Assembly (NCBI GenBank): GCA_900234795.1
Contig: LT962688.1
Span: forward strand, 1,200,001 to 1,232,000
Length of the DNA: 32,000 nucleotides
Source of the DNA: Methylorubrum extorquens
Lineage (GTDB): Bacteria > Pseudomonadota > Alphaproteobacteria > Rhizobiales > Beijerinckiaceae
Reading direction: 5' to 3'
The notes under the pieces were generated by a model. It saw only the letters and a list, made by a program, of their open reading frames with translations. It searched no databases and was not told the DNA's origin. The position numbers and the translations under genes are program-made. This document shows positions 1,801-32,000 of this stretch, in pieces. How positions within the stretch are numbered: the first letter of the stretch is position 1; every line of letters starts with the position of its first letter.

Positions 1801-1905
1801 TCCTTCGGGGTTTCGGGCCGGGCTCGAACCGGCGCGATCGAGGGGGCGGGATCGCCGCTCGCGACAAGTCCCAAGAAGAGCAAGTCCCATAAAGTGGAGG
1901 AAACC

Positions 1906-2196: not shown

Positions 2197-2206
2197 TCCG
2201 CTGAGG

Positions 2207-2298: not shown

Positions 2299-2344
2299 AC
2301 CGCGTGAGGGCGCTCCCAACGACAAGAAAAAGGCCAGCCGCCGA

Positions 2345-5177: not shown

Positions 5178-5181
5178 CCCG

Positions 5182-6249: not shown

Positions 6250-6875
6250 TGCCCTCCGCCCTCACCCACGCACCCTCCCCGTCCCTGCGCACCCGGCTCG
6301 GCGCGGGCTTGGGCCAGGGCTGGCGCAGCCTCCGCCCCACCCTGCTCGTGCTGCTGCCGATCCTGCTGCTCGGAACCGCCGCCGCCCTTGCGCTCTCGGC
6401 CTGGCGGGACGCGCGCACCAACGCGGCCATCGCCGAGTTGGAAGCGGGGCGCGACATCGCCGTCCCGCCGGACGCCCCCGACGCGTTCCTCGTCGCGCGG
6501 ACAAAATTCCTGGCTTTTCGCGATCGCCTCGGCGAGGCGGAGCCGCTGCTGGAAACCCTCGACCATCGGCGGTCCGCCGACGCCGCGGCCCGCGCCCGCT
6601 ACATCGTCGCCAATGCCCGCATCCGCGAAGCCTTCCGGCTGATCGAGCGCAGCGAACTCGACAAGGCCGGCCCGCAGGTCACCCTCGCGCGCCAGGATTA
6701 CCGCCGGGCGCTCCAGGCCCGGCCAAACTTCTGGGACGCGAAGTTCAACTTCGACGTCGCCTCGCGCCTGATCCGCGACTTCCCCGAATTCGACCGCAAG
6801 TTCGGCGACGAGCTGAAGGCCGAGCCCAAGCAGATCTGGACCGACATTCCCGGCCAGCCAAGAGGCGGGCCATGA
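6249..6875 (+). CDS. mxaK: MxaK accessory protein
   Basis: 208 aa. The ATG overlaps the mxaC stop (TGATG). One N-terminal TM segment, then a helical, TPR-like region. Assignment is by position between the two vWA genes. Confidence 0.75.
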   Translation: MPSALTHAPSPSLRTRLGAGLGQGWRSLRPTLLVLLPILLLGTAAALALSAWRDARTNAAIAELEAGRDIAVPPDAPDAFLVARTKFLAFRDRLGEAEPLLETLDHRRSADAAARARYIVANARIREAFRLIERSELDKAGPQVTLARQDYRRALQARPNFWDAKFNFDVASRLIRDFPEFDRKFGDELKAEPKQIWTDIPGQPRGGP

Positions 6876-7867
6876 GCGTGTGGGCCGCGCTTCCCTTCGC
6901 GAGAAACCTGCGCGACCGCCGCTTCCAGGCGCTTGCCGCCGCGCTTCTGCTCGCAGGTCTGGCGATCGTCGTGCCGCCGCTGCCGCTGACCCGCTCAGGG
7001 GTTTCGGTGCTGGCGGTGGTCGACATCACCGGCAGCATGAACGTGCGCGACTATACCAGCGACGGGCGCCCGGCGAGCCGGCTCGACATCGCCAAGGCGG
7101 CCCTGCGCGACCTCATCCCCGAACTGCCCTGCGGCTCGCGCCTCGCGCTCGCCCTGTTCACCGAGCGGCGCCCCTTCCTGCTGTTTGCGCCGATCGAGGT
7201 CTGCGCCGATTTCGCGCCGCTGGACGGAGCGATCGCGGCGCTCGACTGGCGCATGGCCTGGGAGGGCGACAGCCGCATCGCTTCGGGCCTGCATCGCGCC
7301 CTCACCATGGCCGGCGAACTCGACACCGACCTCCTGTTCATCACCGACGGCCAGGAGACGCCGCCGCTGCCGGCCAACGGCATCCCGCCCTTCGAGGGCA
7401 AGGCGGGCGCGGTGCGCGGCCTGATCGTCGGGGCAGGGGGCTATGCGCTCGCGCCGATCCCGAAATTCAACGATCGCGGCCGCGAGACCGGCTTCTATGC
7501 CGAGACCGACGTGCAGCAGGAGAACCGCTTCGGCCCGCCCCCGGCCGACGCGGAATCGCGCGAGGGCTACAACCCGCGCAACGCGCCCTTCGGCGGCGCG
7601 GCGGCGCGCGGCGAGGAGCATCTCTCCTCCGTGCGCGAGCCGCATCTGAAAGCGCTCGCCGCCCAGACCGGCCTCGCCTACGCCCATCTCGACGGGCCGG
7701 ACCTGCGCGCGCCCCTTCTCGCGGCCGCCACGCCGCGCCCCCTTCCGAGCCGGCTCGACCCCCGGCCCTTCCTCGGCGCGGCGGCTCTGGCCCTCGTGCT
7801 CGCCGTCTTCCTCGCGGGCGCGCTCCGCGCCCGCCTCACACCCTTCACCCCCAGCAGGATGTCATAA
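6872..7867 (+). CDS. mxaL: MxaL, von Willebrand factor A domain protein
   Basis: ATG 6872 overlaps the mxaK stop (ATGA). The long upstream extension in the ORF track (from 6185) is Arg/Pro-rich nonsense. vWA motif LAVVDITGSMN and LLFITDGQE. N- and C-terminal TM segments. Confidence 0.85.
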   Translation: MSVWAALPFARNLRDRRFQALAAALLLAGLAIVVPPLPLTRSGVSVLAVVDITGSMNVRDYTSDGRPASRLDIAKAALRDLIPELPCGSRLALALFTERRPFLLFAPIEVCADFAPLDGAIAALDWRMAWEGDSRIASGLHRALTMAGELDTDLLFITDGQETPPLPANGIPPFEGKAGAVRGLIVGAGGYALAPIPKFNDRGRETGFYAETDVQQENRFGPPPADAESREGYNPRNAPFGGAAARGEEHLSSVREPHLKALAAQTGLAYAHLDGPDLRAPLLAAATPRPLPSRLDPRPFLGAAALALVLAVFLAGALRARLTPFTPSRMS

Positions 7868-8397
7868 TGCGTCTGTCCCTTCTCGTTCTTCCGCTCGCGC
7901 TCGCCGCGACCGCTGCCCTCGCCCACGGCCCGACCCCCCAAAAGGTCTCCCAGTCGATCACGATCAAGGCGAGCCCGGATGCGGTGTGGAAGGTGGCGGG
8001 CGACTTCGCCGGCATCGGAAAGTGGCACCCGGCGATCGGGAAGGCCGAGGGCAGCGGCTCGAAGGATGGCGGCACCCGCACGCTGACCTTCAAGAACGGC
8101 GGAAAACTCGAAGAGAGCCTCGACGAGTACAAGCCGGAGGGTCGCACCTATTCCTACCGGATGGGCGAGCCGAACCTGACGGCGCTGCCGGTCTCGTCCT
8201 ACTCGGCGACCTTCACCGTGAGCCCGGAGGGCGACGGCTCCAAGGTCGAGTGGATGGGCCGCTTCTATCGCGGCGATACCGGCAACGAGCCGCCGGAGAA
8301 CCTCAGCGATGAGGCCGGCAAGGCGGCGATGAACACGTATTTCTCGGAAGGGCTGAAGGGCCTGAAGGCGGTCGTGGAGGGCGGCAAGGGCAAATGA
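7867..8397 (+). CDS. mxaD: MxaD, SRPBCC-fold periplasmic protein that stimulates the MDH-cytochrome cL interaction
   Basis: ATG 7867 overlaps the mxaL stop (TAATG). 176 aa. Signal peptide ..TAALAHG. Polyketide-cyclase/SRPBCC-like sequence (ASPDAVWKVAGDFAGIGKWHP). Confidence 0.85.
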   Translation: MRLSLLVLPLALAATAALAHGPTPQKVSQSITIKASPDAVWKVAGDFAGIGKWHPAIGKAEGSGSKDGGTRTLTFKNGGKLEESLDEYKPEGRTYSYRMGEPNLTALPVSSYSATFTVSPEGDGSKVEWMGRFYRGDTGNEPPENLSDEAGKAAMNTYFSEGLKGLKAVVEGGKGK

Positions 8398-8421
8398 GCC
8401 GGTGCAGTTGAGGCACGCGCC

Positions 8422-9363
8422 ATGATCCGCCCCGCCCTCGTCGCACTGTTGCTTGCTCCCGCGCTCGCCGGCCTGCCGGTGCGGGCCGCGACGGTCTACG
8501 TCGCGAGCCAGCAGGGGGCTCAGGTGACGCGCCTCGAGGCGGGAACGGTCGCGGGCCACGCGACCGTAGCGGGAGCGCCCGCCACGGTCGCGACGGGCGG
8601 CGGGTCCGTGTTCCTCAGCCATCCGGACGGGCACGCGATCACCGTGGCGGACGCCACGGGCGCGGTGCTGCGCCGCCTCCCCTACAAGGGCCAGGGCTTC
8701 GGCCTCGCCGCCTCGGCGGACGGCCGGACCCTGTTCGTCGCCGACTGGTCGGGCAACCGCGTCGACCGGCTCTCGGCCGCCGACAGCACGGTCGAGGCCT
8801 CCGCCGAGACCGGTCGCGACCCGGCGCATATCGTCCTCGACCGCGCCGGCCGGCTCTATGTCGCCGACCGGGAAAGCCATCAGGTCAGTGTGTTCGACGG
8901 GGCGCGGATGACCCGGCTCGCGACGATTCCCGTCGGCACCGCCCCCTTCGCCCTCGCGCTCAGCCCGGACGAGCGCCGCCTCTATGTCGGCAACGTGCGC
9001 AGCAACGACCTCACCGTGATCGACACGGAGGCGCTCAAAGCCCTCGCCACCGTGCCGGCCGGTGCCATGCCCTACGGCGTCAGTGTGAGCCCGGACGGGG
9101 CGCGGGTCTTCGTCACCAACCAGCATGCCGGCACGGTCACCGTGCTCGATGCGGGCACGCTCGCAAATGCGGCGACGATCGGCGTCGGCCGCTACCCGGA
9201 GGGCATCGTGATCGAAGGGGGAAAGGCCTACGTGGCGAACTGGTTTTCCGACACCGTGTCCGTCATCGATCTCGCCACGCTGAAGGAGATCACCCAAGTG
9301 CCGGTCGCCGAGGGCCCGCGCAGCCTCGCGATCGCCGCGCCGGCAAAGGGAGCCCTGCGATGA
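8422..9363 (+). CDS. mxaE: YVTN-type beta-propeller repeat protein, at the mxaE position
   Basis: 313 aa. Signal peptide. Repeated ~40-aa units with the patterns ..LYVAD/LFVADW/LYVGN/VFVTN/AYVANW.. and P.G.A.SPDG, typical of YVTN/40-residue propeller repeats. The symbol is assigned only from the published gene order mxa..DEHB. Confidence 0.65.
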   Translation: MIRPALVALLLAPALAGLPVRAATVYVASQQGAQVTRLEAGTVAGHATVAGAPATVATGGGSVFLSHPDGHAITVADATGAVLRRLPYKGQGFGLAASADGRTLFVADWSGNRVDRLSAADSTVEASAETGRDPAHIVLDRAGRLYVADRESHQVSVFDGARMTRLATIPVGTAPFALALSPDERRLYVGNVRSNDLTVIDTEALKALATVPAGAMPYGVSVSPDGARVFVTNQHAGTVTVLDAGTLANAATIGVGRYPEGIVIEGGKAYVANWFSDTVSVIDLATLKEITQVPVAEGPRSLAIAAPAKGALR

Positions 9364-9947
9364 GGGCGCTCATGGCCGGTCTCGCCGCCCTGCTGCTCCT
9401 CTCCGCCTGCGACCGCGGTGAAACCTCCGGCGAGACGTCGAACCCGGCGCCCGACCGCGGCGATGACGGGGCCATCGTCGCCTCGACCTCGGAAGACCAC
9501 CTGCCCGACTGGCTCTCGCCCACCGATGGAACCGACCCGGCGCGCTGGCTCGCGGGCCGCGAGGCGGGACACCCCTTGCCCGGCGACGCCGCGGCGGTCA
9601 GGGAACTGCGCGAATCCCTCGACCGGGCGCGCAGCGCCTTCGTGGAAGACAAGCGCATGATCGCCAACCGCACGGTGCAGCTCGGACAGATGCTGTCCGA
9701 GATCGGCAAGACGGAATCCTATCGCGGCCTGATCGACGGCCTCGGCGGGATTGCGTCGGTGCGGGGGCGCAACAAGAGTCTCTACGGCGAGATGTGCCAG
9801 CACTATTACAACACCCGCGCCCAGGGCGCCGACCACGACACCGCGCTCACCCGCCTCGAAGCCCGCGAGCGGCCGGATATCGCCGCGCCGAAGATGCCGC
9901 CCGATCCGCCCCGGGAATCGGAAAAACAGCCGGGAGGGCAGCCGTGA
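9360..9947 (+). CDS. mxaH: Small lipoprotein, at the mxaH position
   Basis: The ATG overlaps the preceding stop (ATGA). Lipobox LLLSAC. 195 aa. I recognise no enzymatic motif. The symbol is by position only. Confidence 0.6.
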   Translation: MRALMAGLAALLLLSACDRGETSGETSNPAPDRGDDGAIVASTSEDHLPDWLSPTDGTDPARWLAGREAGHPLPGDAAAVRELRESLDRARSAFVEDKRMIANRTVQLGQMLSEIGKTESYRGLIDGLGGIASVRGRNKSLYGEMCQHYYNTRAQGADHDTALTRLEARERPDIAAPKMPPDPPRESEKQPGGQP

Positions 9948-10621
9948 GCGACGGACGCGCCGCCGCCCGGCCCCTGCCGGCGCGGCCGGAGACGATGCTC
10001 GTCATCGACGACCACCCGATCGTGATGCAGGGGGTGCGCCGGCTGGCGGAAGCCGCGGGCGTGGCCAAAATCTACGAGGCCGCCGACATCGTCTCGGGCT
10101 ACCGCCTGTTCCACCGGCACCGGCCGGCCCTCGTGGTGGCCGATCTGAGCTTTCGCGACGACGGCCTGTCCGGCCTGTCGCTGATCCGCCGCATCCGGGC
10201 GCTCGATCCGGCCGCGCGCATCCTCGTCTTCAGCATGCATGCCGACCCGGTGCTGGTCTCCCGCGCCCTGGAGGGCGGCGCGCTCGGCTTCGCGCTCAAG
10301 GATGCCGGATCGGACGCCTTCCTGGAGGCGCTCGACGCCGTCCATGCCGGGCGGGGCTACCTGCCGCACGCGCTCGCCACCGACGTGGCGATGCTGAACC
10401 GCAGCGCCCGCCCCGCCCCGCTCGCCACCTTGAGCGCGCGCGAATTGCAGATCCTGTCGCTGCTGAGCCAGGGCAAATCCTACGACGCCATCGCCAGCGC
10501 CATGGCGGTGAGCTACCGCACGATCATCAATGCCAGTTCCAGCATGCGCAAGAAGCTCGGCGTCGAGTCGCGCGCCGGGCTGGTCCAGATCGCGGTCAAC
10601 CGGCGCAACGCGCTGCTGTGA
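9944..10621 (+). CDS. mxaB: MxaB, NarL/FixJ-type response regulator (REC plus LuxR HTH)
   Basis: GTG 9944 overlaps the mxaH stop (GTGA) and has GGGAGGG 5-6 nt upstream; an alternative start is ATG 9995 (MLVIDDHP). Receiver motifs LVIDDH, LVVADLSF and FSMH. C-terminal LuxR-type HTH (LSARELQILSLLSQGKSYDAIASAMAVSYRTI). Confidence 0.85.
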   Translation: MSDGRAAARPLPARPETMLVIDDHPIVMQGVRRLAEAAGVAKIYEAADIVSGYRLFHRHRPALVVADLSFRDDGLSGLSLIRRIRALDPAARILVFSMHADPVLVSRALEGGALGFALKDAGSDAFLEALDAVHAGRGYLPHALATDVAMLNRSARPAPLATLSARELQILSLLSQGKSYDAIASAMAVSYRTIINASSSMRKKLGVESRAGLVQIAVNRRNALL

Positions 10622-10657: not shown

Positions 10658-10800
10658 GTCATCCCCATCCTCACCCTCATCCTGAGGTGCCCGCGACAGC
10701 GGGCCTTGAAGGATCCTCCAGGAAGCGCGCGATCCCTGGAAGATCCTTCGAGGCCGACGCTGCGCGCCGGCACCTCAGGATGAGGGGGCGGGTTGGATGA
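10658..10800. repeat. Palindromic REP/MITE-like intergenic element, copy A
   Basis: Perfect 18-bp terminal inverted repeat: CCCTCATCCTGAGGTGCC (10674-10691) and GGCACCTCAGGATGAGGG (10769-10786). Internal inverted repeat GGCCTTGAAGGATC / GATCCTTCGAGGCC. Shares CCTGAGGTGC, GAAGGATCCTCC, GATCCTTCGAGG and CCTCAGGATGAGG with the element at 21772-21900. Confidence 0.8.
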
Positions 10801-11213: not shown

Positions 11214-12625
11214 TCAGGCGCGGTGGTAGGCATCCTCGAGGCGGACGATGTCGTCCTCGCCGAGGTAGCTGCCGAGTTGCACCTCGATCAGTTCGACATC
11301 GTCGTTGCCGGGATTCTCGAGGCGGTGGATGGCGCCGAGCGGGATGAAGATGTGCTCGCTCTCTCGCGGTAATCGGCGACCGTGTCGTCCACGGTGACCC
11401 GGGCGCAGCCGCGCACCACGACCCAGTGCTCGGCCCGGTGGCGGTGCTTCTGCAGTGAGAGCCGGCCGCCGGGCGCCACGGTGATCCGCTTGACCTGGAA
11501 GCCGTCGGAGGCTTCCAGCACCCGGTAGCTGCCCCAGGGGCGGTGCGAGGAGGCGTGCCACTCGGCCTGGGGCCGGCCCTTGCTGCGCAGGATCTCGACC
11601 ATCTTGCGCACGTCGCCGCAGCGGCTGCGGTCGGCCACCAGGATCGCGTCCTTCTCGGCCACCACGACGAGATCCCGCACGCCGACGAGCGAGGTCACCA
11701 TCCCGTCCGAGGAGACGAAGCAGCCCTCGGTGTCGAACAGCTCGGCCGCGCCGCGGCTGACATTGCCGAGATCGTCCCGCTCGCTGATCGCCCAGAGCGC
11801 GTTCCAGTTGCCGACATCCGACCAGCCGCAGCGCATCCGCGCGACCGCGGCGCGGCTCGTCTTCTCCATCACCGCGAAGTCGAGGGAGGTCTTGTGGGTG
11901 CCGGCAAACCCCTCGGCGTCGAGGGCGAGCGCCCCGCCCTCGTCGGCGGCGGCCTCGACCGCCAGGGCGGCGGCGGCGGCCGTGTCGGGATCGAACGCGG
12001 CGTATTCGGCGCACAGGGTGTCCGCCCGCATCAGGAAGTTGCCGGAGTTCCACAGCCAGCGGTCCGAGAGGTAGGTGGCGGCCCGCGCCGCGTCCGGCTT
12101 CTCGGCGAAGGTGTGCACCGCGTGGCAGCGCGCCTCGACGCGGGTGCCCGGCCGGATCCAGCCATATTCGGTGCTGGCGTGATCGGCCTCGATGCCGAAG
12201 GTGACGAGCCGCCCGGCCCGCGCCGCCGGCAGGGCGGAGGCGACGGCCCGCCGGAAGGCGCGCGGCTCGGTGACGATGTGGTCGGAGGGCAGCACGAGCA
12301 CCACCGCCTCGGGATCCTCCCGCGCCACCAGGGTGCAGGCGGCCAGGATCGCCGGGCCGGAATCGCGGCGCTCCGGCTCCAGCAGGAGGGTGACGCCCGC
12401 ATCGATCGCGGCGGCCTGCTTCTCGACGAGGCAGCGGTGATCGCGGTTGGCGACCACGATCGGCCGGGCGAAGAGCGGGCCCTGGAGCCGCAGCAGGGTC
12501 TGCTGGAAGGTCGAGTGCGGCCCGAGCAAAGGCACGAACTGCTTCGGCAATGAGGTGCGGGAGGTGGGCCAGAGCCGCGTTCCCGAGCCGCCGCAAAGGA
12601 TGACGGGCTGGATCCGTGCAGGCAT
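11214..12625 (-). pseudogene. manC: Mannose-1-phosphate guanylyltransferase / mannose-6-phosphate isomerase (ManC/XanB/CpsB type), interrupted by a 1-nt frameshift in the C-terminal cupin domain
   Basis: N-terminus [27 protein letters not shown] (nucleotidyl-transferase signature); AAGGA precedes ATG 12625. The frame read from 12625 gives ..[28 protein letters not shown] and then nonsense. The canonical cupin end [49 protein letters not shown] is in the adjacent frame and ends at 11214. Total length is 1412 nt (3n-1). The shift lies in GCGAGAGAGCGAGC (plus-strand 11355-11369). Confidence 0.85.
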
Positions 12626-19312: not shown

Positions 19313-21517
19313 ATGGATCCGTTCCACGAAGCCGACCCGCCCGGCGGCGGGCGATCGCTGACCTCCCATTACGAGGCGGTCACCGGGCACGCCCTCGCGG
19401 TGCTCTGGCGGCGCCGGATCATGATCGCCTCGATCGCCGGGCTGTCGGCGCTGGCGGCGGGGGCGGCCACGCTCGCCCTGCCGCCGAGCTACACCGCCGA
19501 GGTGCTGCTCCAGTTCGATTTCGGCCAGACCCAGGACGTGCGCGGGACGGGCAAGTCCGGCCCGCAGATCGCCCTCGAACCGGCCTCGGTCGTCGAGAGC
19601 GAGGCGCGCATCATCCGCTCCTTTGCCATCGCGCAATCCGTGGCGGGCCGGCTCGAGGACGCCGGGCAAGCCAAGCAGGCGGCCCAGGCGGGGCCTGCCG
19701 CCAAGGAGGCATCCGCGGGATGGGTCGGCTCCCTGAGGCAGGCCCTTGAGAACCGGGTTCAGGCCGCGCTGCCCGCCCTCCCCGGCACCCGTCCGGAAGA
19801 AACCGCGCAGCAGGAGACCGAGCGAGACGCCCAGGCGCAGCGGCTCCTGCGCGGGCTCACCGTCGGCAACGACGCCAAGGCCTATCTGATCACCATCGGC
19901 TACCGCGACCGCGATCCGAAGCGGGCGGCGGAGACCGCCAACACCTTCGCCACCGAGTATCTCGCCCGCAAGATGCAGGCGGCTTCGCTCGCCACCGAGC
20001 GGGCGAGCCGCTGGTACGCCGAGCAGATCCAGGTCTCGCGCGGTGAACTCGCCCGCCTGGACAGCGAGATCGACGCCTTCCGCAAGCGCACGGGCTTCGT
20101 CGAGTCGGTGCGCGAGGGCGTGGACCTGCGCGAGCAACAATTGCGCGACGCCCTCACCGAACTCTCCAGCGCCTCGGCCAAGCGGCTGGCGGAGGAGGCC
20201 CGGCTGCAGCGCGCCGGGGACGTGATGCGCTTCGGCGGCGTGCCGAACGCCTCCGACACGACGATCTCGCCGGTGATCCAGCAGATGCTGGCGGATGACA
20301 GCAAGCTGCGCCAGGAACTGGAGCAGCTCACCGCCGTCTCCGGCGACAACCACCCCAGCGTGCTGCGGCTCAAGGCCTCGATCGCCGCGCTCCAGCAGCG
20401 GCTTCAGCTCCGCATGGCCGAGGTTCTGAAACTGGTCGAGGTCGATCTCGGCGCCGCCCGCGGGCTCGAAGCCTCGGCCGAGGCGCGGGTCGCGACCGTG
20501 CGCCGCTCGCTCATCGAGAGCAAGGCGCTCGAATCGAAGCTCCGCGCACTCCAGGCCGACGCGACCGCCGCCCGCGACCGCCTGCGCGTCCTCGACGAGG
20601 GCTACCAGACCGCCAACGCGCTGAGCGAACTCAAGCCGGTGATGGCGCAGATGCTGGCGCCAGCCAAGGTGCCGACCCTGCCCACCGGGCCCGGCCTTGG
20701 CCTCGTGCTCGGCCTCGGCCTGTTCGCCGGGGCCGGCGCCGGCTCGGTGCTGGCGCTCGGGCTCGACCGCCGCGACCGGGGCTACCGCAGCCAGGGCGAG
20801 ATGGAGGCCGAGACCGGCCTGCCCTGCCTCGCGCTGCTGCCGAACCGGCCGGCGGGTGCGCAATCGGGCGAGCGCCTGGAGCAGGATCTCCTCTTCCGCG
20901 AGGCCGTGCGGGCGGCGGTGGCCGAACTCGTCGCGGTGCGCGAGCCGCTCAAGGTCGTCCTCGTCACCTCGGCGATGCCCGGTGAGGGCAAGTCCGTCGT
21001 CGCCCGCTCGGTGGCGCGCTCGCTCGCCGCGATGGGGCGCCGGGTGCTGATCCTCGACGGCTCGCCCCGCCGCGCGGCGATCGAGGACGGCCGCCACGGC
21101 AATCTCGGACACGAGACGCCGACCGACGACGAGGAGGCGGAGGGCCGCATCTCGACCATCCGCCGCGTCTCCGGCCTCAAGGACGGGCACGACATCTACG
21201 CCGAGCCGACCTTCGGCATGCTCGTGCGGGAGGCGCGCGAGCGCTACGACATCATCCTCGTGGAGGTGCCCCCGGTGCTGCTGCTGGGCGACGTCGCACT
21301 CCTGCGCCAGCACGCCGATGCCGTGGTCCATGTCGTGGCGTGGCACGGCACGCAGAAGGCCGCCGTCACCGCGAGCCTCGCCTATATGCGCCGGCTCGGG
21401 CTGACGGTCGCCGGGCTCGTCCTGAACAAGGTCGATCTGAAGCGCCACGAGGGCCGCGCCGCGGATCGCGGCACGCTCTACCGCGACTTCTCGCACTACT
21501 ACCGGAACAGCGCGTGA
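19313..21517 (+). CDS. Polysaccharide co-polymerase / BY-type tyrosine autokinase (Wzc/ExoP/GumC-like, PCP-2a)
   Basis: 734 aa. N-terminal TM plus Wzz-like region, a long coiled coil, and a second TM (GLGLVLGLGLFAGAG). C-terminal P-loop VLVTSAMPGEGKSVVA and Walker B-like DIILVEVPP. The tail contains Tyr residues (LYRDFSHYYRNSA). Confidence 0.85.
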   Translation: MDPFHEADPPGGGRSLTSHYEAVTGHALAVLWRRRIMIASIAGLSALAAGAATLALPPSYTAEVLLQFDFGQTQDVRGTGKSGPQIALEPASVVESEARIIRSFAIAQSVAGRLEDAGQAKQAAQAGPAAKEASAGWVGSLRQALENRVQAALPALPGTRPEETAQQETERDAQAQRLLRGLTVGNDAKAYLITIGYRDRDPKRAAETANTFATEYLARKMQAASLATERASRWYAEQIQVSRGELARLDSEIDAFRKRTGFVESVREGVDLREQQLRDALTELSSASAKRLAEEARLQRAGDVMRFGGVPNASDTTISPVIQQMLADDSKLRQELEQLTAVSGDNHPSVLRLKASIAALQQRLQLRMAEVLKLVEVDLGAARGLEASAEARVATVRRSLIESKALESKLRALQADATAARDRLRVLDEGYQTANALSELKPVMAQMLAPAKVPTLPTGPGLGLVLGLGLFAGAGAGSVLALGLDRRDRGYRSQGEMEAETGLPCLALLPNRPAGAQSGERLEQDLLFREAVRAAVAELVAVREPLKVVLVTSAMPGEGKSVVARSVARSLAAMGRRVLILDGSPRRAAIEDGRHGNLGHETPTDDEEAEGRISTIRRVSGLKDGHDIYAEPTFGMLVREARERYDIILVEVPPVLLLGDVALLRQHADAVVHVVAWHGTQKAAVTASLAYMRRLGLTVAGLVLNKVDLKRHEGRAADRGTLYRDFSHYYRNSA

Positions 21518-21777
21518 TGGGCGCGCAATCCGCAGCGAGCCCGGGGGTGGCGATCCTCGTGAGCGAATGGACCTTCGCCTGCGCGGCCTGCGGCTCCCCC
21601 GCCGTCACCTGGCCGGCGGACCCGACCGCCGAGGCGGCCATCGCCTGCGGCGGCTGCGCCCGGCCTTTGGGCACCCTCGCCGCCTTCCGGGCCGGGATCG
21701 AGCGGGTCCTGGCCACCCACCGCCCCCACGGGCAGGGCCAGGGCGGCGAGGCTTTCCCACCCACGACCTCGCCCTGA
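21517..21777 (+). CDS. Hypothetical 86-aa protein with a CxxC-N19-CxxC zinc-ribbon-like motif
   Basis: ATG 21517 overlaps the kinase stop (TGATG). GC3 is very high. Motif FACAACGSP...IACGGCARP. Its last codons and TGA stop lie inside REP-like element B. Confidence 0.45.
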   Translation: MGAQSAASPGVAILVSEWTFACAACGSPAVTWPADPTAEAAIACGGCARPLGTLAAFRAGIERVLATHRPHGQGQGGEAFPPTTSP

Positions 21778-21900
21778 GGTGCTGCGCAGCAGCCTCGAAG
21801 GATCCTCCGGATCCCGTGCGGTCCCCGGACGATCCTTCGAGGCTGGACGATCCTTCGAGGGCCGCGGGCACGGCCCCCCTCAGGATGAGGCGGAGGGATG
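21772..21900. repeat. Palindromic REP/MITE-like intergenic element, copy B
   Basis: Shares CCTGAGGTGC, GAAGGATCCTCC, GATCCTTCGAGG and CCTCAGGATGAGG with copy A. Contains an internal tandem duplication of GGACGATCCTTCGAGG (21827-21842 and 21845-21860). Confidence 0.75.
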
Positions 21901-21931
21901 GGTTTTCCGCCTCACCGCGCGGGCGTCGCGC

Positions 21932-23360
21932 TCAGACGAACAGGATATGACCCGCGTTCAACTCGGCCTTCTGGGTGTCGGCGAGCCAGAGCGTGTCCGA
22001 TCCAGAGCCGATCGCGACATCGGTGCCGACATCCTGCGCCGCGGCCAGGACGGCCTCGAACGAGCCGAACATCGACCGGCTGATCTCGATCGCGTCGGGC
22101 GCGGAACCGCCGGTCTCGAAATCCTCGACCCAATCGGTGCCGTTGCCGGCCTTGAACGCGAACCGGTCGGCCCCGGCCCCGCCCCAGAGATGATCGGTGC
22201 CGCTGCCGCCGTCGAGCCGGTCGTTGCCGGCCCCGCCATAGAGCGCATCGTCGCCGGCCAGCCCGTTGAGCGTGTCGTTGCCGTCCATCCCGTCGAGGTC
22301 GTCGGCGGCGTTCGATCCGGTCATCGTCTCGGCCCCGGCGGTGCCGTCGCGGTTGAGGCTGGTGCCGGAGGGTGAGGCGGCGACCGGGGGGCGGTGCCGG
22401 GCTGTCGCCCGTGACGACTCCGACGACGGTTCCGACCGTACCCGCCACCCAATCGAACACGTTGTGGATCGGCGTCATCGGCGTGGCCGAGGGCGCTGCC
22501 GACACGTCCGCGCCGGCCGAGGACGGGCCCCAGGCGATGTTGTTGGCCACAGCCGGGTCCGTGTAGGTCGAGTCGACGATCGACACGCCGTCGCCGGTCG
22601 CGTTCCAGATGACGGCGTTGGACAGGGGATCACCCCGGCCCTGGTCGGCGGCGATGTTGTCGAAGGAGCGGGTGTCGACGAAGGACACGTCGTCCGAATA
22701 GGACGAGAAGCCGCCATTGCCCATGTGGATCACGTCGACGTTCTGGACCTGGCCACCCTGCGAATTGCCCTCGAACATCACTCCGACGCCGCTCGGCGAA
22801 TTGTTGCCGTCGATCACGCCGTTGGTAATCGAGACGTTCTGGCTGTCGATGATCGAGACGTTGTCCTCGACATGCGACCCGTTCGGATCGTTGGTGACGG
22901 CGAAATCCGAGAGGCTGCCGTTCGGTGACTGGTAGAACTGGACGAACTGGCCCGACGGATAGAGCCCGTGGAAGTCGTGGCCCTCAATGTGGGAGAGCGT
23001 CGCGCCGGGCGACTGGCCGAGATAGATGCCGGTGCCGTTGTCCTGCAGCGTCACGTGCGAGGCGGTGAAATCGGGCGCATTGACGACCCGGATGCCCGTG
23101 GCCTCGCCGGCCTGGCCCTGGTTGCCGTTGGGCGGATCGGAATGGACGATCAGGCTGTTCTCGACGGTGACGCCGCTGGAATCCTCGACGACGATGCCGT
23201 TGCCGTCGGCGTGGTGAATGGTGACGTTGCGGATGACGACATTGTCGTGCTCGACGCGGATGGCGTTGCCGTCGGAGACCCAGAGATCCAGATTTTCGAT
23301 GACCTGTCCGTCATGCGTCGTACGGATGGGCGTGGTGCTTGTGGTCAAACCCGTGGGCAT
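21932..23360 (-). pseudogene. Secreted (T1SS-type) parallel beta-helix / RTX calcium-binding protein, paralogue 1. The reading frame is broken by a +1 insertion in a G6 run (or by a sequencing error)
   Basis: ATG 23360 with a GGAG RBS. No Sec signal peptide (MPTGLTTSTTPIRTTHDGQ). PbH1-like repeats (NVVIRNVTIHHADGNGIVVEDSSGVTVENSLIV..). The frame is lost after ..GDSPAPPP at the G-run 22386-22391. The next frame continues VAASPSGTSLNRDGTAGAETMTGSNAADDLDGMDGNDTLNGLAGDDALYGGAGNDRLDGGSGTDHLWGGAGADRF (GGxGxD nonapeptides) and ends ..AELNAGHILFV. Length 1429 nt (3n+1). Confidence 0.8.
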
Positions 23361-23417
23361 ATTTGCTCCATTTGTTAATATTACAACAAAATCAACAACT
23401 ATATGAATAGAATCAGT

Positions 23418-23443
23418 GGATCGACCTAGCAAATCTGCAACGT
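23418..23443 (-). promoter_or_regulatory. Conserved upstream motif TACGTTGCAGATTT-N6-TCGATC (paralogue 1 copy)
   Basis: Plus-strand GATCGA-N6-AAATCTGCAACGTA at 23418-23443, 58-83 nt upstream of start codon 23360. An identical composite motif with identical spacing lies at 25284-25309, upstream of paralogue 2. The flanking sequence has diverged. Confidence 0.35.
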
Positions 23444-23561
23444 AATTAATCTGCGCTAGGCCATGCGGCCTATTCGGCCTGGGAAGTCATTAACCGCAAA
23501 GCTTTTAGCCAAGGCACCGCCGCCCGATATTTTTCGCAGCGCACAACCGATGTGGCCGTGT

Positions 23562-23577
23562 GGCCACGCTTGATCGG
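23562..23577 (-). promoter_or_regulatory. Second conserved upstream island GGCCACGCTTGATCGG (paralogue 1 copy)
   Basis: A 16-nt exact match to 25426-25441. The offsets from the two start codons are 202 and 204 nt. Confidence 0.25.
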
Positions 23578-23733
23578 GTAGAGCGCGATTCGGTGGCGCG
23601 CCGCCGGCCGGGGCCGCGGAGGACCCCGCGACCACGACCGAAAGGCGCTTCAAGCCTGCCCCCGCGCAGCATCCGGCGACCGGCCCGCGTCCCTTCGGAC
23701 GCGACGGTGCACCGGACGCTTCGCGGGAAATGC

Positions 23734-25222
23734 TCAGACGAAGAGGAAGTCGCCGGCCGAGAGCTGCGCCTTGTGAACGTCGGCGAGCCACAGCGTGTCG
23801 GCGCCCGAGGTGATGGCGACATCGGAGCCGACATCATGGGCCGCGGCGAGCAGGGCGTTGAACGAACCGAACATCGCCTTGCTCACTTCGACGACGTCCT
23901 GCGCGGTGCCGCTGAGCTGGAAGTCCTCGACCCAGTCGGTGCCGTTGCCGGCCTTGAACACGAAGTGGTCCGCGCCGGTGCCACCCCAGAGGTGGTCGGT
24001 GCCGCTGCCGCCGTCGAGCCGGTCGTTGCCGGCCCCGCCGTAGAGGCGATCGTCGCCGGCCAGCCCGTTGAGCGTGTCGTTGCCGCCCCGCCCGTCGAGG
24101 TCGTCGGCGAAGCGCGAGCCGGTCATCGTCTCGGAGGACGCCGTGCCGTCGCGGTCGATGCCCGTGCCGGCCGGGGCCGTGGCCGTCGGGGCCGTCGGGG
24201 ACGGCGCCGGGGACGGCGCCGGAGTCGGGGCCGGGGCCGGGGTCGGTGCAGGAGTCGGGGCAGGCGTCGGCACCGGATCCGCAACCGGAGCGCTGCCGGT
24301 CGCCGTCCCGTCGAACACGTTGTGGATCGGCGTCATCGGCGTGGCCGAGGGCGCTGCCGACACGTCCGCGCCGGCCGAGGAGGTTCCCCCAGACGATGTT
24401 GTTGGCGACCCCTGGGTCCGTGTAGGTCGAGTCCTCGATCGTGACGTTGTGGCCGGTCGCGTTCCAGATCAGCCCGTTCGACAGCGACGCGCCGCGGCCC
24501 TGGTCGCCGGCATCGTTGTCGAAGGAGCGGGTGTCGACGAAGGACACGTCGTCCGAGTAGGACGAGAAGCCGCCATTGCTCATGTGGATCACGTCGACGT
24601 TCTGGACGTGGCCACCCTGCGAATTACCCTCGAACATCACGCCGGCACCGCTCGGCGAGTTGTTGCCGTCGATCACGCCGTTGGCGATCGAGACGTTCTG
24701 GCTGTCGATGATCGAGACGTTGTCCTCGACATGCGAGTGGCTCGCATCGTTGGTGACAGCGAAATCCGAGAGGCTGCCGTTCGGCGACTGGTAGAACTGA
24801 ACGAGCTGACCGCCGGGGAACGGCCCGTGGAAGTTGTGGCCCTCGATGTAGGAGAGCTTCGCGTTCGGGGACTGGCCGAGATAGATGCCGGTGCCGCTGT
24901 CCTGCAGGGTCACGTGCGAGGCGGTGAAGCCGGACGCGTTGACGACCCGGATGCCGGTGGTCTCCGCATCGGTCTCGCCCCCGTTGCCCGTGGGCGGATC
25001 GGAATTGACGATGAGGCTGTTCTGGACGGTGACGCCGCTGACGTCCTCGACGACGATACCGTTGCCGTCGGCGTGGTGAATGGTGACGTTGCGGATGACG
25101 ACGTTGTCGTGATCGACGCGGATGGCGTCGCCGTCGGAGACCCAGAGATCCAGATTTTCGATAACCTGTCCGTCGTACGTCGTGCGGATGGGGGTGGTGC
25201 TATAGGTTTGGCCCGCAGGCAT
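23734..25222 (-). pseudogene. Secreted (T1SS-type) parallel beta-helix / RTX calcium-binding protein, paralogue 2. The reading frame is broken by a +1 insertion in a C5/G5 run (or by a sequencing error)
   Basis: ATG 25222 with an AGGAG RBS. No signal peptide. The beta-helix region is collinear with paralogue 1 and highly similar by eye. The frame is lost after ..VANNIVWG at plus-strand C-run 24386-24390. Removing one base restores WGTSSAGADVSAAPSATPMTPIHNVFD, which matches paralogue 1. A Pro/Thr/Ala linker follows, then five GGxGxD repeats and the C-terminus ..AQLSAGDFLFV. Length 1489 nt (3n+1). Confidence 0.8.
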
Positions 25223-27232: not shown

Positions 27233-30200
27233 TTAGACCAAGAGGCCGTCCTGAACCGAGGCGGGATTGACCTTCCACACCTCGATCGCCGCCACGGTCG
27301 GATTCTCGGCCGCCCCCTGCCAGAAGGCGAGGTCGAGCGTCCCGTCGGTGACCGAGACCGTCCGCGTCAGGGTCGTCGCGGTCGCGCCCGCCGTTGTCGC
27401 CGCCCAGATGTCGTAGTTGGCGACCGTGGTGCCCTCGATGCCGAGGTTGAACTGACGCTGGCCCGCCCCGCTGAGGCCGCCCGGATCGTCGGGCTGGTTG
27501 TAGATCTCGGCAAAGTGCAGGATCACCTCGTAGGAGCCGGAGGCCAGCGCGCTGCCATCCGCGTTCTTGATCGCGTAGCCGAAGCGTCCGTCGTCGGCAT
27601 CCGTGGTCGAGGCGCTGGCCCAGCCGAAGCGCTGGTTCTGGTAGAGCGCGTCGTCGGTGGTGCCCGCAATCGGATCGCCGTCGGAATAGGTCGCGTTCCC
27701 ATCCTGGCCGGCAACGTAGAAGCGGTGGGGGGCGGCCGCCGTGTCGGCCTCGAACACCGTTCCGTCCGCACGGGTATGGGCCGCCCCGCCGGAATTGATG
27801 GCCATGACGAGGGTGTCGGCACCGGGCGTCACGTCGATGGTGAAGGCGTGCGAGGTGGCGGCGTTGGTGTTGAGGGAAGGGCTCGCATCGGCGACCTCCC
27901 CGGCTTTCACCGTGGCGGTGTACGACCCGTCGGCCCAGCCGCCCGCCGGCGCAGCGACGAGGTAGGTGGCGGTGGCCGAGGTGGCGCTCAACGTCGCCTT
28001 CGATTGCAGGCTGATCGCCCCGACCGCGCCTGCTCCCGTCACCGCGAGATCGCTCGCCCCGATGCTGGCGAGATCGATTCCCGAGGTGTCGTTGTAGACC
28101 ACCGTCACGCTCGCTTGGCCCGCGGCGGAGACGGGCGCCGCGACATCGAAGGAGCCGATGGTCGGCGCCGTCGCGTCGGCGCCGCCGGTCACCTGCCGCA
28201 CGACGATGCCGCTCAGCTTGGCGTTGTCCAGGCCGTTGATGAACTGCAGGTCGAGCGTGCCGTTGGCGCCCGCGATGACCGGGCCCGAGACGAAGGTATA
28301 GGGCGTGTTGAAGTTGCCGGTCTGGGCCAGGATGTCGAGATCGTTGAGGATGGTCTGGCCTTCGAACGTAACGTCGAACACCCGCTGGCCGGGATTGCTC
28401 CACCAGAGTTCGGCGAAGCGCAGCTCGACCGTGTAGGACTGCGTCGTGCTGGCGACGGGGATGGCGTAGCTGAAATTGCCGTAGCGCTCGGTCTGGTAAA
28501 CGGTGCCGCCGAAGGCCGTCTGCAGGCCATTGCCACCCGTGCTGTCGGCGAAGGTGGCGCCGCCGGTGAAGTACTGGTCCGCCGAGAAGCTGATCCCGTC
28601 CTGACTCACCGCGCCTCCGCCCGCGTTGATCGCCGCGACGATCCCGACCGGAACACTCGGTTGGAACGACGAGCCTTGGCCGGAGGCGGCGTTGGTGTTC
28701 CCGGCGGGACTCGCATCGGCGATTTCCCCAGCCTTCACGGTGGTGATGTACTCCCCACCGATCCAACCGCCGGCTGGCGCGGCGACCAGATAAGTGGCGG
28801 TGGCTGAGGTGGCACTCGTGGCCGCCTTCGATTGAAGCGTGATCGCCCCGACCGGACCGGCACCCGTCATCGTGATGTCGCTCGCCCCGATGCTGTCGAG
28901 ATTGATCCCCGAGGCGTCGTTGTAGATCACCGTGACGCTGGCACTCGCGGTCGGGGTCGACGGCCCCTGGATCACGAAGGGGCCGGCCACCGACGGTCCC
29001 GTCGTATCGGCGTTCCCGCCGCCGTTCGCCTGCCGCACGATGATGCCGCTGAGCTTGGCGTTGTCGATGCCGTTGGCAAATTGCAGGTCGAGCGTGCCGT
29101 TGGCACCCGCCGTGATCGGGCCGGAGACGTAGCTGTAGGGCGTATTGAAGCTGCCGGTCTGGGCCAGGATATCGAGGTCGTTGAGGACGGTCTGCCCCTC
29201 CAGCGACACGTCGAAGACGCGCTGGCCCGGGTTGCTCCACCACAATTCGCCGAAGCGCAGCTCGACCGTGTAGGCCTGGCTCGCGCTGGCCACGGGGATC
29301 GCGTAGCTGAAATTGCCGTAGCGTTCGGTCTGGTAGACGGTGTTGGTGAAGACCGATTGCAGGCCGTTGCCGCCGGTGCTGTCGATGAAGGTGGCGCCGC
29401 CGGTGAAGTACTGGTCGGCCGAGAAGCTGATTCCGTCCTGGATCAGCGCCGCGCCGCCGGCATTGATCGCCGCGACGATCCCGCCCGCGCTGCTGGTCTG
29501 GACCGAGAAGAGCTGGGAGGCCGCGAGGTTGGTGTTGGCCGCCGGGCTCGCGTCGGACACCTCGCCGGTCTTGACGGTGGCGGTGTACTGGCCGTTGGTC
29601 CAGCCCCCGGTGGGGGCGGCGACGATGTAGGTGGCGGTGGCCGAGGTCGCGCTGGTGCTCGTCTTGGATTGCAGCGTGATCGCCCCGATCGCGCCGGGGC
29701 CCGTCACCGCGATGTCGGCCGCGGTGATGCTGGCGAGGTTGATGCCCGAAGCGTCGTTATAGACCACCGTGACGCTGGCACTCGCGTCCCCCGCCACGGG
29801 CGCCTGGACCGTGAAGGGCCCGACCGTCGGCTTGGTCATGTCGGTGCCGCCGCCCCCGCTCACTTGGCGTACGACGATGCCGCTGAGCTTGGCGTTGTCG
29901 ATGCCGTTGGCGAATTGCAGGTCGAGCGTGCCGTTGGCGCCCGCCGTGATCGGCCCTGAGACGTAGGTGTAGGGTGTGTTGAAGCTGCCGGTCTGGGCCA
30001 GGATATCGAGGTCATTGAGGATGGTCTGGCCTTCGAGCGTGACGTCGAAGACGCGCTGGCCCGGATTGCTCCACCACAATTCGCCGAAGCGCAGCTCGAC
30101 CGTGTAGGCCTGGCTCGCGCTGGCCACGGGGATCGCGTAGCTGAAATTGCCGTAGCGCTCGGTCTGGTAGACGGTGTTGGTGAAGGCCGATTGCAGGCCG

Positions 30201-32000
30201 TTGCCGCCGGTGCTGTCGATGAAGGTGGCGCCGCCGGTGAAGTACTGGTCGGCCGAGAAGCCGATCCCGTCCTGCGTCAGCGCCCCGCCGCCGGTGTTGA
30301 TCGCCGCAACGACCGGGTTCGTGGTGCCCGATTTGGCGGTGGTGGTGATGGTGACCCCATCGAAATCGGCGGTGAAGGCCTCGCCGTCGTTGGAGGTGGC
30401 GAGCAGGCCCACCGCCATCCCGCTCGCCTTGCCGCCGACGGTGTAGTCGCCCTGGATCGCCTTCAGCAGCGCGCTGCCGCTCGGCACGCTCAGGCTGGTG
30501 CCGGCGGTGAAGGCGGCGTTCGCGTCGGTGGCGGAGGAGACCGCCCCGGTGCCGAAGCGCCAGTACGGCGTCACCGTGTTGGTCTCGAGATTGACCGCGA
30601 GGCGCAGCTGCACCCAGCTCGCGCTCGTCGCACTCAGGAGCGCGTTGTTGGTGACCGCGCTGGTTTGGGCGACGCCGAGATTCTCCATCGAGGTCTCGAA
30701 GATCGCGCTGGTATACTTGCCCCCCGCACTCTCGCCGCGCCCGCCGAGCACCAGCTTGATGAAGTTGTCCTGGTCGCCCGTGCCGATCTGCAGGCCCGCC
30801 GAGGGGAAGCCGCCGTTGCTCGTGGCGTTCGGTATCCAGTTCGCCATCGTCATGGTGACGTTGGCGGTCGCCACGCTGTCATCGAAGGTGACGCCGGCCT
30901 GCAACGCGTCCTTGAGGGTGTTGTTGCCTTCCGTGAAGTCGCCCTCCTGCACGTTCTTCAACTGGATGACGCCGCCCGCGCCGCCCGCGATGATGTTGGC
31001 CGAGGTGTAGAGGCCGCCGTCGAGGAACGGGTCGAGCCCGTTGATCATCGCGCCGGTGAGCCCACTGCCGCCGAACGTGCCGGGAAGCGAGCCGGATTCG
31101 AAGTTGAACACGACCGTTTCGCCGCCGGAGATCACGTCGGTGCCCGCGGTGCCGTTGTCGGGGTCGAGGGCAAAGGGGTCGAGCGTGTTGTTGATCCCGT
31201 CGCCGTCGAGATCGAGGTTCTGCGGGTTGGTGGGGCCCGGGGTCAGCACCTTGATGTTGCCGTCGGCCAGCGTGGTGACCCAGACGGTGCCGGCGAACGG
31301 CTTGCCGTCGCCGACCGCATCGATGCCGAGCGGGGCGCCGCCGCCCATCGGCACGACCTGCTTGTCCGCTGCCACGATCTGGCCCGCGGCGCCGACAGCG
31401 GTGTCGACCCCGCCCGAGGCATTGCGCGGGATGATGTGGAGATAGCCCGCCAGATCCGTGACGAGGATGGCGCCCTTGATGCTCGTGGTGCCGCCGTCGG
31501 CCGTCGCCCAGGTGGTCGAGGCGGTGTATTCGGCCAGCCCGTTGAGCGAGCCCTGGCCGGTATCGAGCGCCCCGTCGCTGATGCCGCCCTCGAAGAACAC
31601 GCTCTCGCGCGGGTCGGCGGTGCCGGCCGGGATCACCGAGTCGAAATCGGCGGGCAGGCCGGCGCTGCCATGGGGCAGGAAGGTCGCCCCTGTCACGCCC
31701 GCCCCCGGCGTCAGCAGCCAGCCGGCTTGGCCGCCTACCGCCCGCACGAGGTTGGGGTGGCCGCCGTAATAGCCCTCCCCCGTGATCTCGTGGAGTTGGT
31801 CGTAGTTGAGCCGCTTGGTGCCGCCGTCCTGGTCGGCCGTGTTGAGCGGGATCTGGTTCTGGTTGGTCACGACGTTGCCGGCGGCATCCGACGGGCGCCC
31901 GCCCCAGCCATTGTTGGCGCCGTTGTCGTAGGTGAACATCTTGCCGTCGGAGGTCAGCAGCACGTCGTAGGCGTTGCGGTAGCCGGGCGAGTAGATCTGC
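27233..32000 (-). CDS. Giant surface/secreted lectin-like protein. The C-terminal 1588 codons are in the window; the N-terminus lies beyond it. Order: beta-propeller-like region, Ca-binding DxDxDG stretch, concanavalin/LamG-like region, 3 x (malectin + Ig-like), terminal malectin
   Basis: The frame stays open to the window edge (..IYSPGYRNAYDVLLTSDGKMF..). Malectin/CBM57-like modules: INAGG..DG..F.AD.YF.GG......YQTERYG.FSY.IP....Y.V.L.F.E......GQRVFDV..EG...L.DLDI. Intervening ~110-aa Ig-like modules (SVTVVYNDASGINL..ATYLVAAPAGGW). DLDGDGINNTLDPFALDPDNG resembles thrombospondin-type-3 Ca-binding motifs. No RTX repeats. Confidence 0.8.
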   Translation of the reverse strand, partial: QIYSPGYRNAYDVLLTSDGKMFTYDNGANNGWGGRPSDAAGNVVTNQNQIPLNTADQDGGTKRLNYDQLHEITGEGYYGGHPNLVRAVGGQAGWLLTPGAGVTGATFLPHGSAGLPADFDSVIPAGTADPRESVFFEGGISDGALDTGQGSLNGLAEYTASTTWATADGGTTSIKGAILVTDLAGYLHIIPRNASGGVDTAVGAAGQIVAADKQVVPMGGGAPLGIDAVGDGKPFAGTVWVTTLADGNIKVLTPGPTNPQNLDLDGDGINNTLDPFALDPDNGTAGTDVISGGETVVFNFESGSLPGTFGGSGLTGAMINGLDPFLDGGLYTSANIIAGGAGGVIQLKNVQEGDFTEGNNTLKDALQAGVTFDDSVATANVTMTMANWIPNATSNGGFPSAGLQIGTGDQDNFIKLVLGGRGESAGGKYTSAIFETSMENLGVAQTSAVTNNALLSATSASWVQLRLAVNLETNTVTPYWRFGTGAVSSATDANAAFTAGTSLSVPSGSALLKAIQGDYTVGGKASGMAVGLLATSNDGEAFTADFDGVTITTTAKSGTTNPVVAAINTGGGALTQDGIGFSADQYFTGGATFIDSTGGNGLQSAFTNTVYQTERYGNFSYAIPVASASQAYTVELRFGELWWSNPGQRVFDVTLEGQTILNDLDILAQTGSFNTPYTYVSGPITAGANGTLDLQFANGIDNAKLSGIVVRQVSGGGGTDMTKPTVGPFTVQAPVAGDASASVTVVYNDASGINLASITAADIAVTGPGAIGAITLQSKTSTSATSATATYIVAAPTGGWTNGQYTATVKTGEVSDASPAANTNLAASQLFSVQTSSAGGIVAAINAGGAALIQDGISFSADQYFTGGATFIDSTGGNGLQSVFTNTVYQTERYGNFSYAIPVASASQAYTVELRFGELWWSNPGQRVFDVSLEGQTVLNDLDILAQTGSFNTPYSYVSGPITAGANGTLDLQFANGIDNAKLSGIIVRQANGGGNADTTGPSVAGPFVIQGPSTPTASASVTVIYNDASGINLDSIGASDITMTGAGPVGAITLQSKAATSATSATATYLVAAPAGGWIGGEYITTVKAGEIADASPAGNTNAASGQGSSFQPSVPVGIVAAINAGGGAVSQDGISFSADQYFTGGATFADSTGGNGLQTAFGGTVYQTERYGNFSYAIPVASTTQSYTVELRFAELWWSNPGQRVFDVTFEGQTILNDLDILAQTGNFNTPYTFVSGPVIAGANGTLDLQFINGLDNAKLSGIVVRQVTGGADATAPTIGSFDVAAPVSAAGQASVTVVYNDTSGIDLASIGASDLAVTGAGAVGAISLQSKATLSATSATATYLVAAPAGGWADGSYTATVKAGEVADASPSLNTNAATSHAFTIDVTPGADTLVMAINSGGAAHTRADGTVFEADTAAAPHRFYVAGQDGNATYSDGDPIAGTTDDALYQNQRFGWASASTTDADDGRFGYAIKNADGSALASGSYEVILHFAEIYNQPDDPGGLSGAGQRQFNLGIEGTTVANYDIWAATTAGATATTLTRTVSVTDGTLDLAFWQGAAENPTVAAIEVWKVNPASVQDGLLV
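27815..30316 (-). repeat. Three in-frame tandem repeats (834, 837 and 831 nt), each encoding one malectin plus one Ig-like module
   Basis: Unit boundaries from hand counting of the translation: 30316-29483, 29482-28646 and 28645-27815. Plus-strand spurious ORFs recur at 834-837 nt offsets (28932 vs 29769; 29340 vs 30174). The malectin halves of units 1 and 2 differ at roughly 10 of 150 residues. Confidence 0.85.

Follow-up and report, generated by a model that had tools for sequence, protein, structure and literature searches.

In the AlgE epimerases of Azotobacter vinelandii, RTX repeats follow a catalytic beta-helix module; these enzymes lack a Sec signal, are exported by the type I route and act on the cell's own exopolysaccharide (EPS). 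PlyA and PlyB of Rhizobium leguminosarum, which are substrates of PrsDE, are paralogous extracellular EPS processors that are likewise exported by the type I route without a Sec signal, and both are described as non-RTX proteins (PMC3034196). Here, we analyze a tandem pair of minus-strand genes, denoted A and B, that encode proteins with a beta-helix domain and RTX repeats and are located in a 32,000-nucleotide (nt) stretch of Methylorubrum extorquens contig LT962688.1 (positions 1,200,001 to 1,232,000; hereafter, the window). The closest known counterparts of A and B are the automatically annotated orthologues from the M. extorquens group, which are intact, whereas A and B in the window each contain one extra base that breaks the reading frame. 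We put at roughly 0.7 the probability that both genes are intact in the organism and that the extra bases are sequencing or assembly errors, because close relatives carry intact genes and four further one-off insertions are found nearby. Judging from the comparison of assembled sequences, the cause of the breaks thus appears to be technical rather than mutational.

A and B are adjacent tandem paralogues with a common architecture, in which an N-terminal beta-helix is joined by a linker to five RTX nonapeptides and the C-terminus is hydrophobic (Table 1). Gene A can be translated in one frame to about codon 324, after which the homologous continuation is found in another frame; in gene B, the frame switches after codon 278/279. 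The products as written, of 462 and 482 amino acids (aa), are not clean truncations: they end in Arg-rich out-of-frame tails of 157 aa (A) and 183 aa (B). A preliminary description of this DNA had placed one extra base in each of two homopolymers, a G6 run in A and a C5 run in B, and both positions were reproduced by translation and by the frame plot of GC content at third codon positions (GC3), in which both switches are apparent. The only further GC3 frame change on the same strand that is not accounted for by a gene boundary is located at ~11300 and corresponds to a break in a manC-like gene; the frame changes near 7900 and 9900 were considered as candidate frameshifts and rejected, both being ordinary gene boundaries in the mxa cluster.

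Removal of one base each from the G6 and C5 runs yields proteins of 475 aa (A) and 495 aa (B) that can be aligned end to end. Both repaired proteins match the Pfam families Beta_helix (E = 5e-17 for A and 2e-13 for B) and HemolysinCabind (E = 2.7e-13 for A and 4.5e-16 for B), and each contains five GxxGxD nonapeptides, three of which have the canonical form GGxGxD. The C-termini (...GHILFV in A and ...GDFLFV in B) consist of H or D followed by a hydrophobic tetrapeptide. By inspection, the hydrophobic core of a signal peptide is absent from the N-termini, MPTGLTTSTTPIRTT.. and MPAGQTYSTTPIRTT..; they are polar (MPTGLTTSTTPIRTTHDGQ..), the first beta-helix strand of the structure model is already reached at residues 6-8, and there is no cleavable Sec signal. 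The order of domains and the lack of a Sec signal peptide given in the preliminary description are therefore borne out by Pfam, by the structure models of the repaired proteins (see below) and by the polar N-termini, with five nonapeptides in each protein. Its statement that both breaks separate the catalytic module from the secretion module is correct for gene A, where the break falls within the disordered linker (predicted local distance difference test score, pLDDT, below 50), but not for gene B, where the break at about residue 278 lies inside the conserved end of the beta-helix (residues 278-304, pLDDT 94-97, motif ATPMxPIxNxFDW), and the final ~27 residues of this folded domain are encoded past it.

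Comparison of the run lengths in orthologous loci shows that, at both sites, the extra base is private to the window assembly, and the in-frame allele is present in all 11 related loci that cover either site. At the B site, the coding-strand run is G4 in 6 of 6 orthologous loci vs. G5 in the window, and when JGI metagenome contigs were scanned for the two alleles, the 3 contigs found all had the 4-base, in-frame one. At the A site, the coding strand reads C5 in M. rhodesianum and CCCGCGG in Leaf123 vs. C6 in the window (on the plus strand, the relatives have G5 or, in Leaf123, GCGGG), and the sequence is one base shorter in CP021054.1 as well as in LMNP01, JBSQCZ01 and the JGI contig L041, the last three being additional carriers of the short alleles. 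The tandem pair is represented by single open reading frames (ORFs) in all 6 orthologous loci (Leaf123, M. rhodesianum, M. thiocyanatum, a metagenome-assembled genome of M. populi, M. zatmanii LMG 6087 and an ENA contig), both genes are intact in JBSQCZ01, and homologues from Methylorubrum and Methylobacterium are, as a rule, intact and 474-495 aa long. The sequence CP021054.1 (named M. zatmanii) shares 99.90% identity with the window over 18-21 kb and encodes intact A and B of 475 and 495 aa; three NCBI assemblies, CP021054.1, JBSQCZ01 and LMNP01, have an identical copy of the neighboring 734-aa protein. Repaired B does not differ from the 495-aa product of CP021054.1, and repaired A is exactly the protein P0122 of an independent JGI metagenome contig that itself carries the short alleles. 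The difference between gene A or B and a known intact allele is, in essence, the inserted base, with no other decay. An exact look-up of the 462- and 482-aa frameshifted products among 153 billion gene positions returned no match, and no independent assembly in the collection searched reproduces them. A different kind of variation is observed in the Pro/Ala/Thr-rich linker of gene B (window 24180-24280), where the length differs between strains in in-frame units of 6 and 12 nt (in comparison to JBSQCZ01 and Leaf123); this is a real repeat-unit polymorphism, unlike the frame-breaking single bases.

We further compared positions 1079-32000 of the window to the closest relatives and identified six private indel events (one per 5.2 kb), all six of which are insertions (sign test p = 0.03) and all six of which occur in simple repeats (Table 1). 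Flags that marked homopolymer indels as shared with relatives were rejected as an artefact of gap placement, given that inspection shows all six to be private. Three of the six events are in non-coding DNA, which argues against targeted gene inactivation, and the other three break A, B and the manC-like gene. The latter (window 11214-12625, minus strand, start at 12625) encodes a mannose-1-phosphate guanylyltransferase/isomerase; the inserted CT is absent from 5 of 5 relatives. As written, the manC-like product has 445 aa, with the last 48 residues, including the cupin motif, replaced by 24 out-of-frame residues, and removal of the CT yields a 469-aa protein with an intact cupin C-terminus. 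There are only ~5 private single-nucleotide polymorphisms (SNPs), and the private indel:SNP ratio is ~1:1; if the ratio were in the natural range of 0.1-0.3, at least 6 indels would be observed with a probability between 1e-5 and 4e-3. The private SNPs look selection-filtered and real because all three coding ones are synonymous third-position changes; the private indels do not.

Table 1. Positions of genes A and B, their parts and frame breaks, and the other private insertions (window coordinates)
Feature	Position	Strand	Description
Gene A	21932-23360	minus	ATG at 23360, stop 21932-21934
Gene A, 5' part	22392-23360	minus	Beta-helix (residues 1-304) and first part of the disordered linker; same frame as ATG 23360; Pfam Beta_helix, AlphaFold, Foldseek
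Gene A, 3' part	21932-22385	minus	Remaining linker, five RTX nonapeptides and C-terminal domain ending ..GHILFV; in a frame other than that of the 5' part
Gene A break	22386-22391		Plus-strand G6 (C6 on the coding strand); private extra base
Gene B	23734-25222	minus	ATG at 25222, stop 23734-23736
Gene B, 5' part	24391-25222	minus	Beta-helix up to residue ~278, in the frame of ATG 25222
Gene B, 3' part	23734-24385	minus	End of the beta-helix, Pro/Ala/Thr-rich linker, five RTX nonapeptides, C-terminus ..GDFLFV
Gene B break	24386-24390		Plus-strand C5 (G5 on the coding strand); private extra base
Private insertion	10663-10666		+1, C4 vs. C3; intergenic, at the edge of a copy of the palindromic repeat
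Private insertion	11359-11360	minus (gene)	+2 (CT); 3' end of the manC-like gene
Private insertion	21874-21879		+1, C6 vs. C5; at an arm of the palindromic dispersed repeat (CTCATCCTGAGG motif), 55 nt downstream of gene A
Private insertion	23659-23663		+1, C5 vs. C4 in all relatives; A-B intergenic spacer

The distribution of the insertions is uneven: the A/B region contains 13% of the G/C runs of at least 4 nt but 4 of the 5 homopolymer events (p = 0.001), and three of the six private indels lie in or beside repeated DNA. The DNA sequences of A and B are ~88% identical overall, except for one 75-nt stretch that is fully identical, which suggests gene conversion between the tandem copies. This stretch is part of a repeat common to both genes (22443-22531 and 24301-24389), and the B site is at the edge of the identical 75 nt. 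Because A and B share this stretch, short-read assemblies break or form chimeras there (N-gaps in L029; contig L046 is an A/B chimera). In LMNP01, runs of N occur inside both genes, one of them directly abutting the B site. A palindromic intergenic repeat, in which the outer arms hold CTCATCCTGAGG and the inner palindromes are built on GAAGGATCC, is present in two copies (window 10664-10796 and 21790-21925), and two of the three intergenic insertions, those at 10663 and 21874, are located at its arms. It is probably a multi-copy element of these genomes that resembles repetitive extragenic palindromes or miniature inverted-repeat transposable elements (REP/MITE-like), because contigs assembled from short reads of related strains terminate within the first copy. 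Logan contigs stop either at 25133, in gene B, or at ~10703, about 40 nt from the 10663 insertion.

Among the residual errors in bacterial long-read assemblies, more than 80% are homopolymer-length errors, assemblies made from long reads only contain about one error per 5 kb, and the errors left after short-read polishing concentrate in repeats (PMC8442456). The pattern of private indels in the window matches this published error behavior (PMC8442456). The extra bases would then be homopolymer-length miscalls that persist mainly in repeated DNA, here the tandem paralogues and the dispersed palindromic element, where short reads could not be placed uniquely and polishing would fail. The preliminary description had offered sequencing error, slipped-strand on/off switching of secretion and parallel inactivation as possible explanations; the first of these is clearly favored by the findings that the extra bases at both sites are private and that four more private insertions occur in simple repeats.

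The alternative that survives best, although we consider it unlikely, is that the insertions are real, very recent slippage mutations at short G/C runs and at a CT repeat, which inactivated both enzymes and altered the manC-like product; the lineage might be mismatch-repair-deficient or laboratory-adapted, with a recent loss or change of EPS processing. Several observations weigh toward this alternative and against a technical origin, which is deduced from assembled sequences. Half of the private indels fall in the ~12% of the sequence that is non-coding, somewhat above the prediction for uniform errors, and this share is what purifying selection on real indels would be expected to produce, as if most coding indels had been removed. 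All three frameshifted genes (manC-like, A and B) belong to one EPS pathway, which could reflect a real loss of EPS. The CT dinucleotide insertion is atypical of flow-chemistry errors, and real polymerase slippage also yields such insertions. The A site (22386) is ~50 nt outside the block shared by A and B, such that the notion of an error in a repeat applies only approximately. Moreover, the strain is truly distinct from its nearest relatives, as indicated by SNPs shared with other runs and by the synonymous private SNPs, and the 5 private SNPs comprise 4 transitions, three of which change G:C to A:T, and one transversion. The combination of transitions with homopolymer indels resembles the spectrum of mismatch-repair deficiency. 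However, real mutation would not predict that the events are located in or beside repeats where assemblies fail, and it is difficult to reconcile with a private indel:SNP ratio far above natural values, with insertions in 6 of 6 cases, with the lack of secondary decay in A and B, and with the absence of the frameshifted products from every other assembly of the collection. Parallel inactivation stays a minority explanation. Were the insertions genuine, the strain would have recently lost both EPS-processing enzymes, along with an alteration of the manC-like product, a parallel loss of EPS remodeling possibly linked to mismatch-repair deficiency; we regard this full scenario as less likely still, and, if true, it would be a natural or laboratory case in which catalytic domains lose their link to the type I export signal.

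A functional reading of the frameshifts, either as programmed +1 ribosomal frameshifting or transcriptional slippage or as slipped-strand phase variation of secretion, is not supported and is highly improbable: both breaks are indeed in G/C homopolymers and in secreted, surface-related proteins, a class in which phase variation is common (PMC3711429), but the site, the conservation of which is the defining criterion of programmed frameshifting (PMC3711429), is kept in no orthologue or near-identical relative, with 11 of 11 loci in frame, the runs of only 5-6 nt are below the tracts of at least 7 nt by which slipped-strand contingency loci are recognized (PMC3711429), neither site varies in length in either direction in any relative, and identical +1 events occur in nearby non-coding DNA.

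If A and B are intact in the organism, as we favor, the repaired proteins can be taken as the basis for functional prediction. The AlphaFold model of repaired A (mean pLDDT 90) comprises a right-handed beta-helix (residues 1-304), a disordered linker (residues 306-332, pLDDT below 50), and a beta-roll with a small C-terminal domain (residues 335-475); its RTX part contains six short strands with a period of 9 (residues 336-383). Because the flexible two-domain model led to low global template modeling (TM) scores in whole-protein Foldseek searches, the N-terminal domain was remodeled alone (pLDDT 95.7, predicted TM-score 0.93). All Foldseek neighbors of this domain are carbohydrate-active beta-helix enzymes, namely, polysaccharide lyases, hydrolases and epimerases: the fucoidan lyase FdlA, the Klebsiella K1 capsule lyase, GH28 polygalacturonases and a GH87 glucanase, and further, the A-modules of AlgE4 and AlgE6, an alginate epimerase/lyase, phage tailspike depolymerases, PL6 alginate lyases and Vibrio cholerae RbmB. 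The best matches have E-values from 1e-6 to 1e-4 and TM-scores up to 0.63 (0.57-0.59 for the K1 capsule lyase, with a root mean square deviation of 3.0-3.8 A over ~255 residues), and none of the families stands out, with sequence identity of at most 16%. According to the preliminary description, an EPS-modifying role would be undercut if profile or structure searches placed the N-terminal domain in a non-carbohydrate family; the structure search placed it among carbohydrate-active enzymes. The models support the assignment of the domain to the fold class of carbohydrate-active right-handed beta-helices, and would be compatible with lyase, hydrolase or epimerase chemistry alike. Catalytic residues could not be mapped in the N-terminal domain, and a sequence search of this domain against the PDB yielded only a weak, uninformative single-repeat match to GH110 (E = 0.015).

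The C-terminal part matches RTX block V of CyaA in Foldseek (TM 0.70, 31-33% identity) and also PML, a lipase secreted by the type I route. The last ~140 residues can be aligned with the extreme C-termini of substrates of the type I secretion system (T1SS) in NCBIfam, namely, with profile positions 482-615 of 616 in PueAB and 427-574 of 574 in the SMc04171 family; no NCBIfam equivalog was found, every match being partial and confined to the RTX part. Relatives of the N-terminal domain in other lineages carry serralysin-type RTX ends or carbohydrate-binding modules, and some distant homologues, including one from the myxobacterium Polyangium, have an N-terminus that resembles a lipoprotein or Sec signal; these differing N-termini and ends are consistent with an extracellular enzyme that is exported by different routes. 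We infer both the T1SS export of A and B and EPS as their substrate, and regard them as probable type I secreted enzymes that act on polysaccharides and belong to the neighboring EPS cluster. Each enzyme would combine the beta-helix domain with a flexible linker, an RTX beta-roll and, at the C-terminus, a type I secretion signal, and would, after export, probably trim or modify the EPS produced by the adjacent Wzx/Wzy-type cluster. A and B belong to a widespread, annotated but experimentally uncharacterized family; a literature search on this type of beta-helix/RTX protein in Methylobacterium found no characterization. Proteins of this type could reasonably be considered as candidate EPS depolymerases or EPS-modifying enzymes, and such a role would be a modest finding that is independent of the frameshifts.

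The tandem pair is located between an EPS assembly block and pmm, as the preliminary description had it. The EPS block upstream includes the manC-like gene, a Wza gene, two epimerase/dehydratase genes, wecG, a priming transferase gene and a Wzz/tyrosine-kinase gene; on the other side, pmm is followed by a gene for a 1853-aa malectin-repeat protein. The gene tables covering window 1079-32000 contain no gene for an ATP-binding cassette (ABC) protein, membrane fusion protein (MFP) or outer membrane factor (OMF), in agreement with the earlier observation that T1SS ABC and MFP genes are absent. T1SS transporter genes are frequently unlinked to the genes of their substrates. The malectin-domain repeat gene adjoins pmm on the minus strand (27233-32000) and extends beyond the window edge, its length of 1853 aa being that in CP021054.1; it contains internal DNA repeats that are ~83% identical (27857-29478 vs. 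28685-30312) and is intact despite many G/C runs. A conserved 86-aa ORF on the plus strand (21517-21777) overlaps, through ATGA, the stop of the Wzz/tyrosine-kinase gene; the ORF is called in every related assembly, and its product contains two Cys pairs (CAACG...CGGC) and has no Pfam match. Plus-strand positions 144-10621 hold the accessory part of the methanol dehydrogenase (mxa) cluster, with all genes intact: these encode a cytochrome c, the methanol dehydrogenase small subunit, a MoxR ATPase, a DUF58 protein, von Willebrand factor A (vWA) proteins, a polyketide-cyclase-like protein, a beta-propeller protein, MoxZ and a LuxR-type response regulator.

The main value of these results is one of caution. 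The window as written suggests two, and in fact three, pseudogenes, and invites ideas on the switching of secretion, whereas near-identical genomes normally have the genes intact and the lesions resemble assembly errors that cluster in repeats. Apart from an uncharacterized, already catalogued enzyme family, there is nothing new at this locus; the beta-helix/RTX family sits inside an EPS cluster of methylotrophs.

Comparison with the known systems outlined above shows likeness at different levels. To AlgE epimerases, A and B are similar only at the level of the fold (12-14% identity, TM 0.43-0.45), and the Pfam family Pect-lyase_RHGA_epim, which includes the beta-helices of epimerases and rhamnogalacturonases, scores 18.7 bits vs. 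a cut-off of 27. The catalytic motif of AlgE is YG(F/I)DPH(D/E), and DPH(D/E) is absent from both the A and the B sequences. Nor is the adjacent cluster an alginate cluster, the neighbors of A and B being manC, wza, wecG, the priming transferase, Wzz/kinase and pmm genes and not alg genes. Membership of A and B in the AlgE family is not supported, on account of the sub-threshold Pfam score, the lack of the catalytic motif and the non-alginate gene context; the comparison with AlgE in the preliminary description holds for the layout and the carbohydrate-active fold, but does not extend to the family. With regard to ExsH/EglC-type glycanases, the NCBIfam EglC profile matches A and B only in the RTX segment (positions 107-207 of 459; 49 bits vs. 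a cut-off of 700), which does not amount to homology of the catalytic domains. FdlA, the K1 lyase, the tailspike depolymerases, the PL6 lyases and RbmB match the N-terminal domain best in structure, at the low sequence identity given above. PlyA and PlyB, compared by their description, are analogous to A and B in role; unlike them, A and B carry canonical RTX repeats, that is, tandem Ca-binding nonapeptides (GGxGxDxUx) that form a beta-roll according to Pfam, the structure model and Foldseek. The orthologues from the M. extorquens group are the same as A and B in length, domain order, tandem arrangement and neighbors, and carry the automatic names 'right-handed parallel beta-helix repeat-containing protein', 'calcium-binding protein' and 'hemolysin'; repaired A is identical to ARO53135.1/WP_085856259.1 (M. 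zatmanii CP021054.1) at 474 of 475 positions and to ABY32496.1 (M. extorquens) at 467 of 475 positions.

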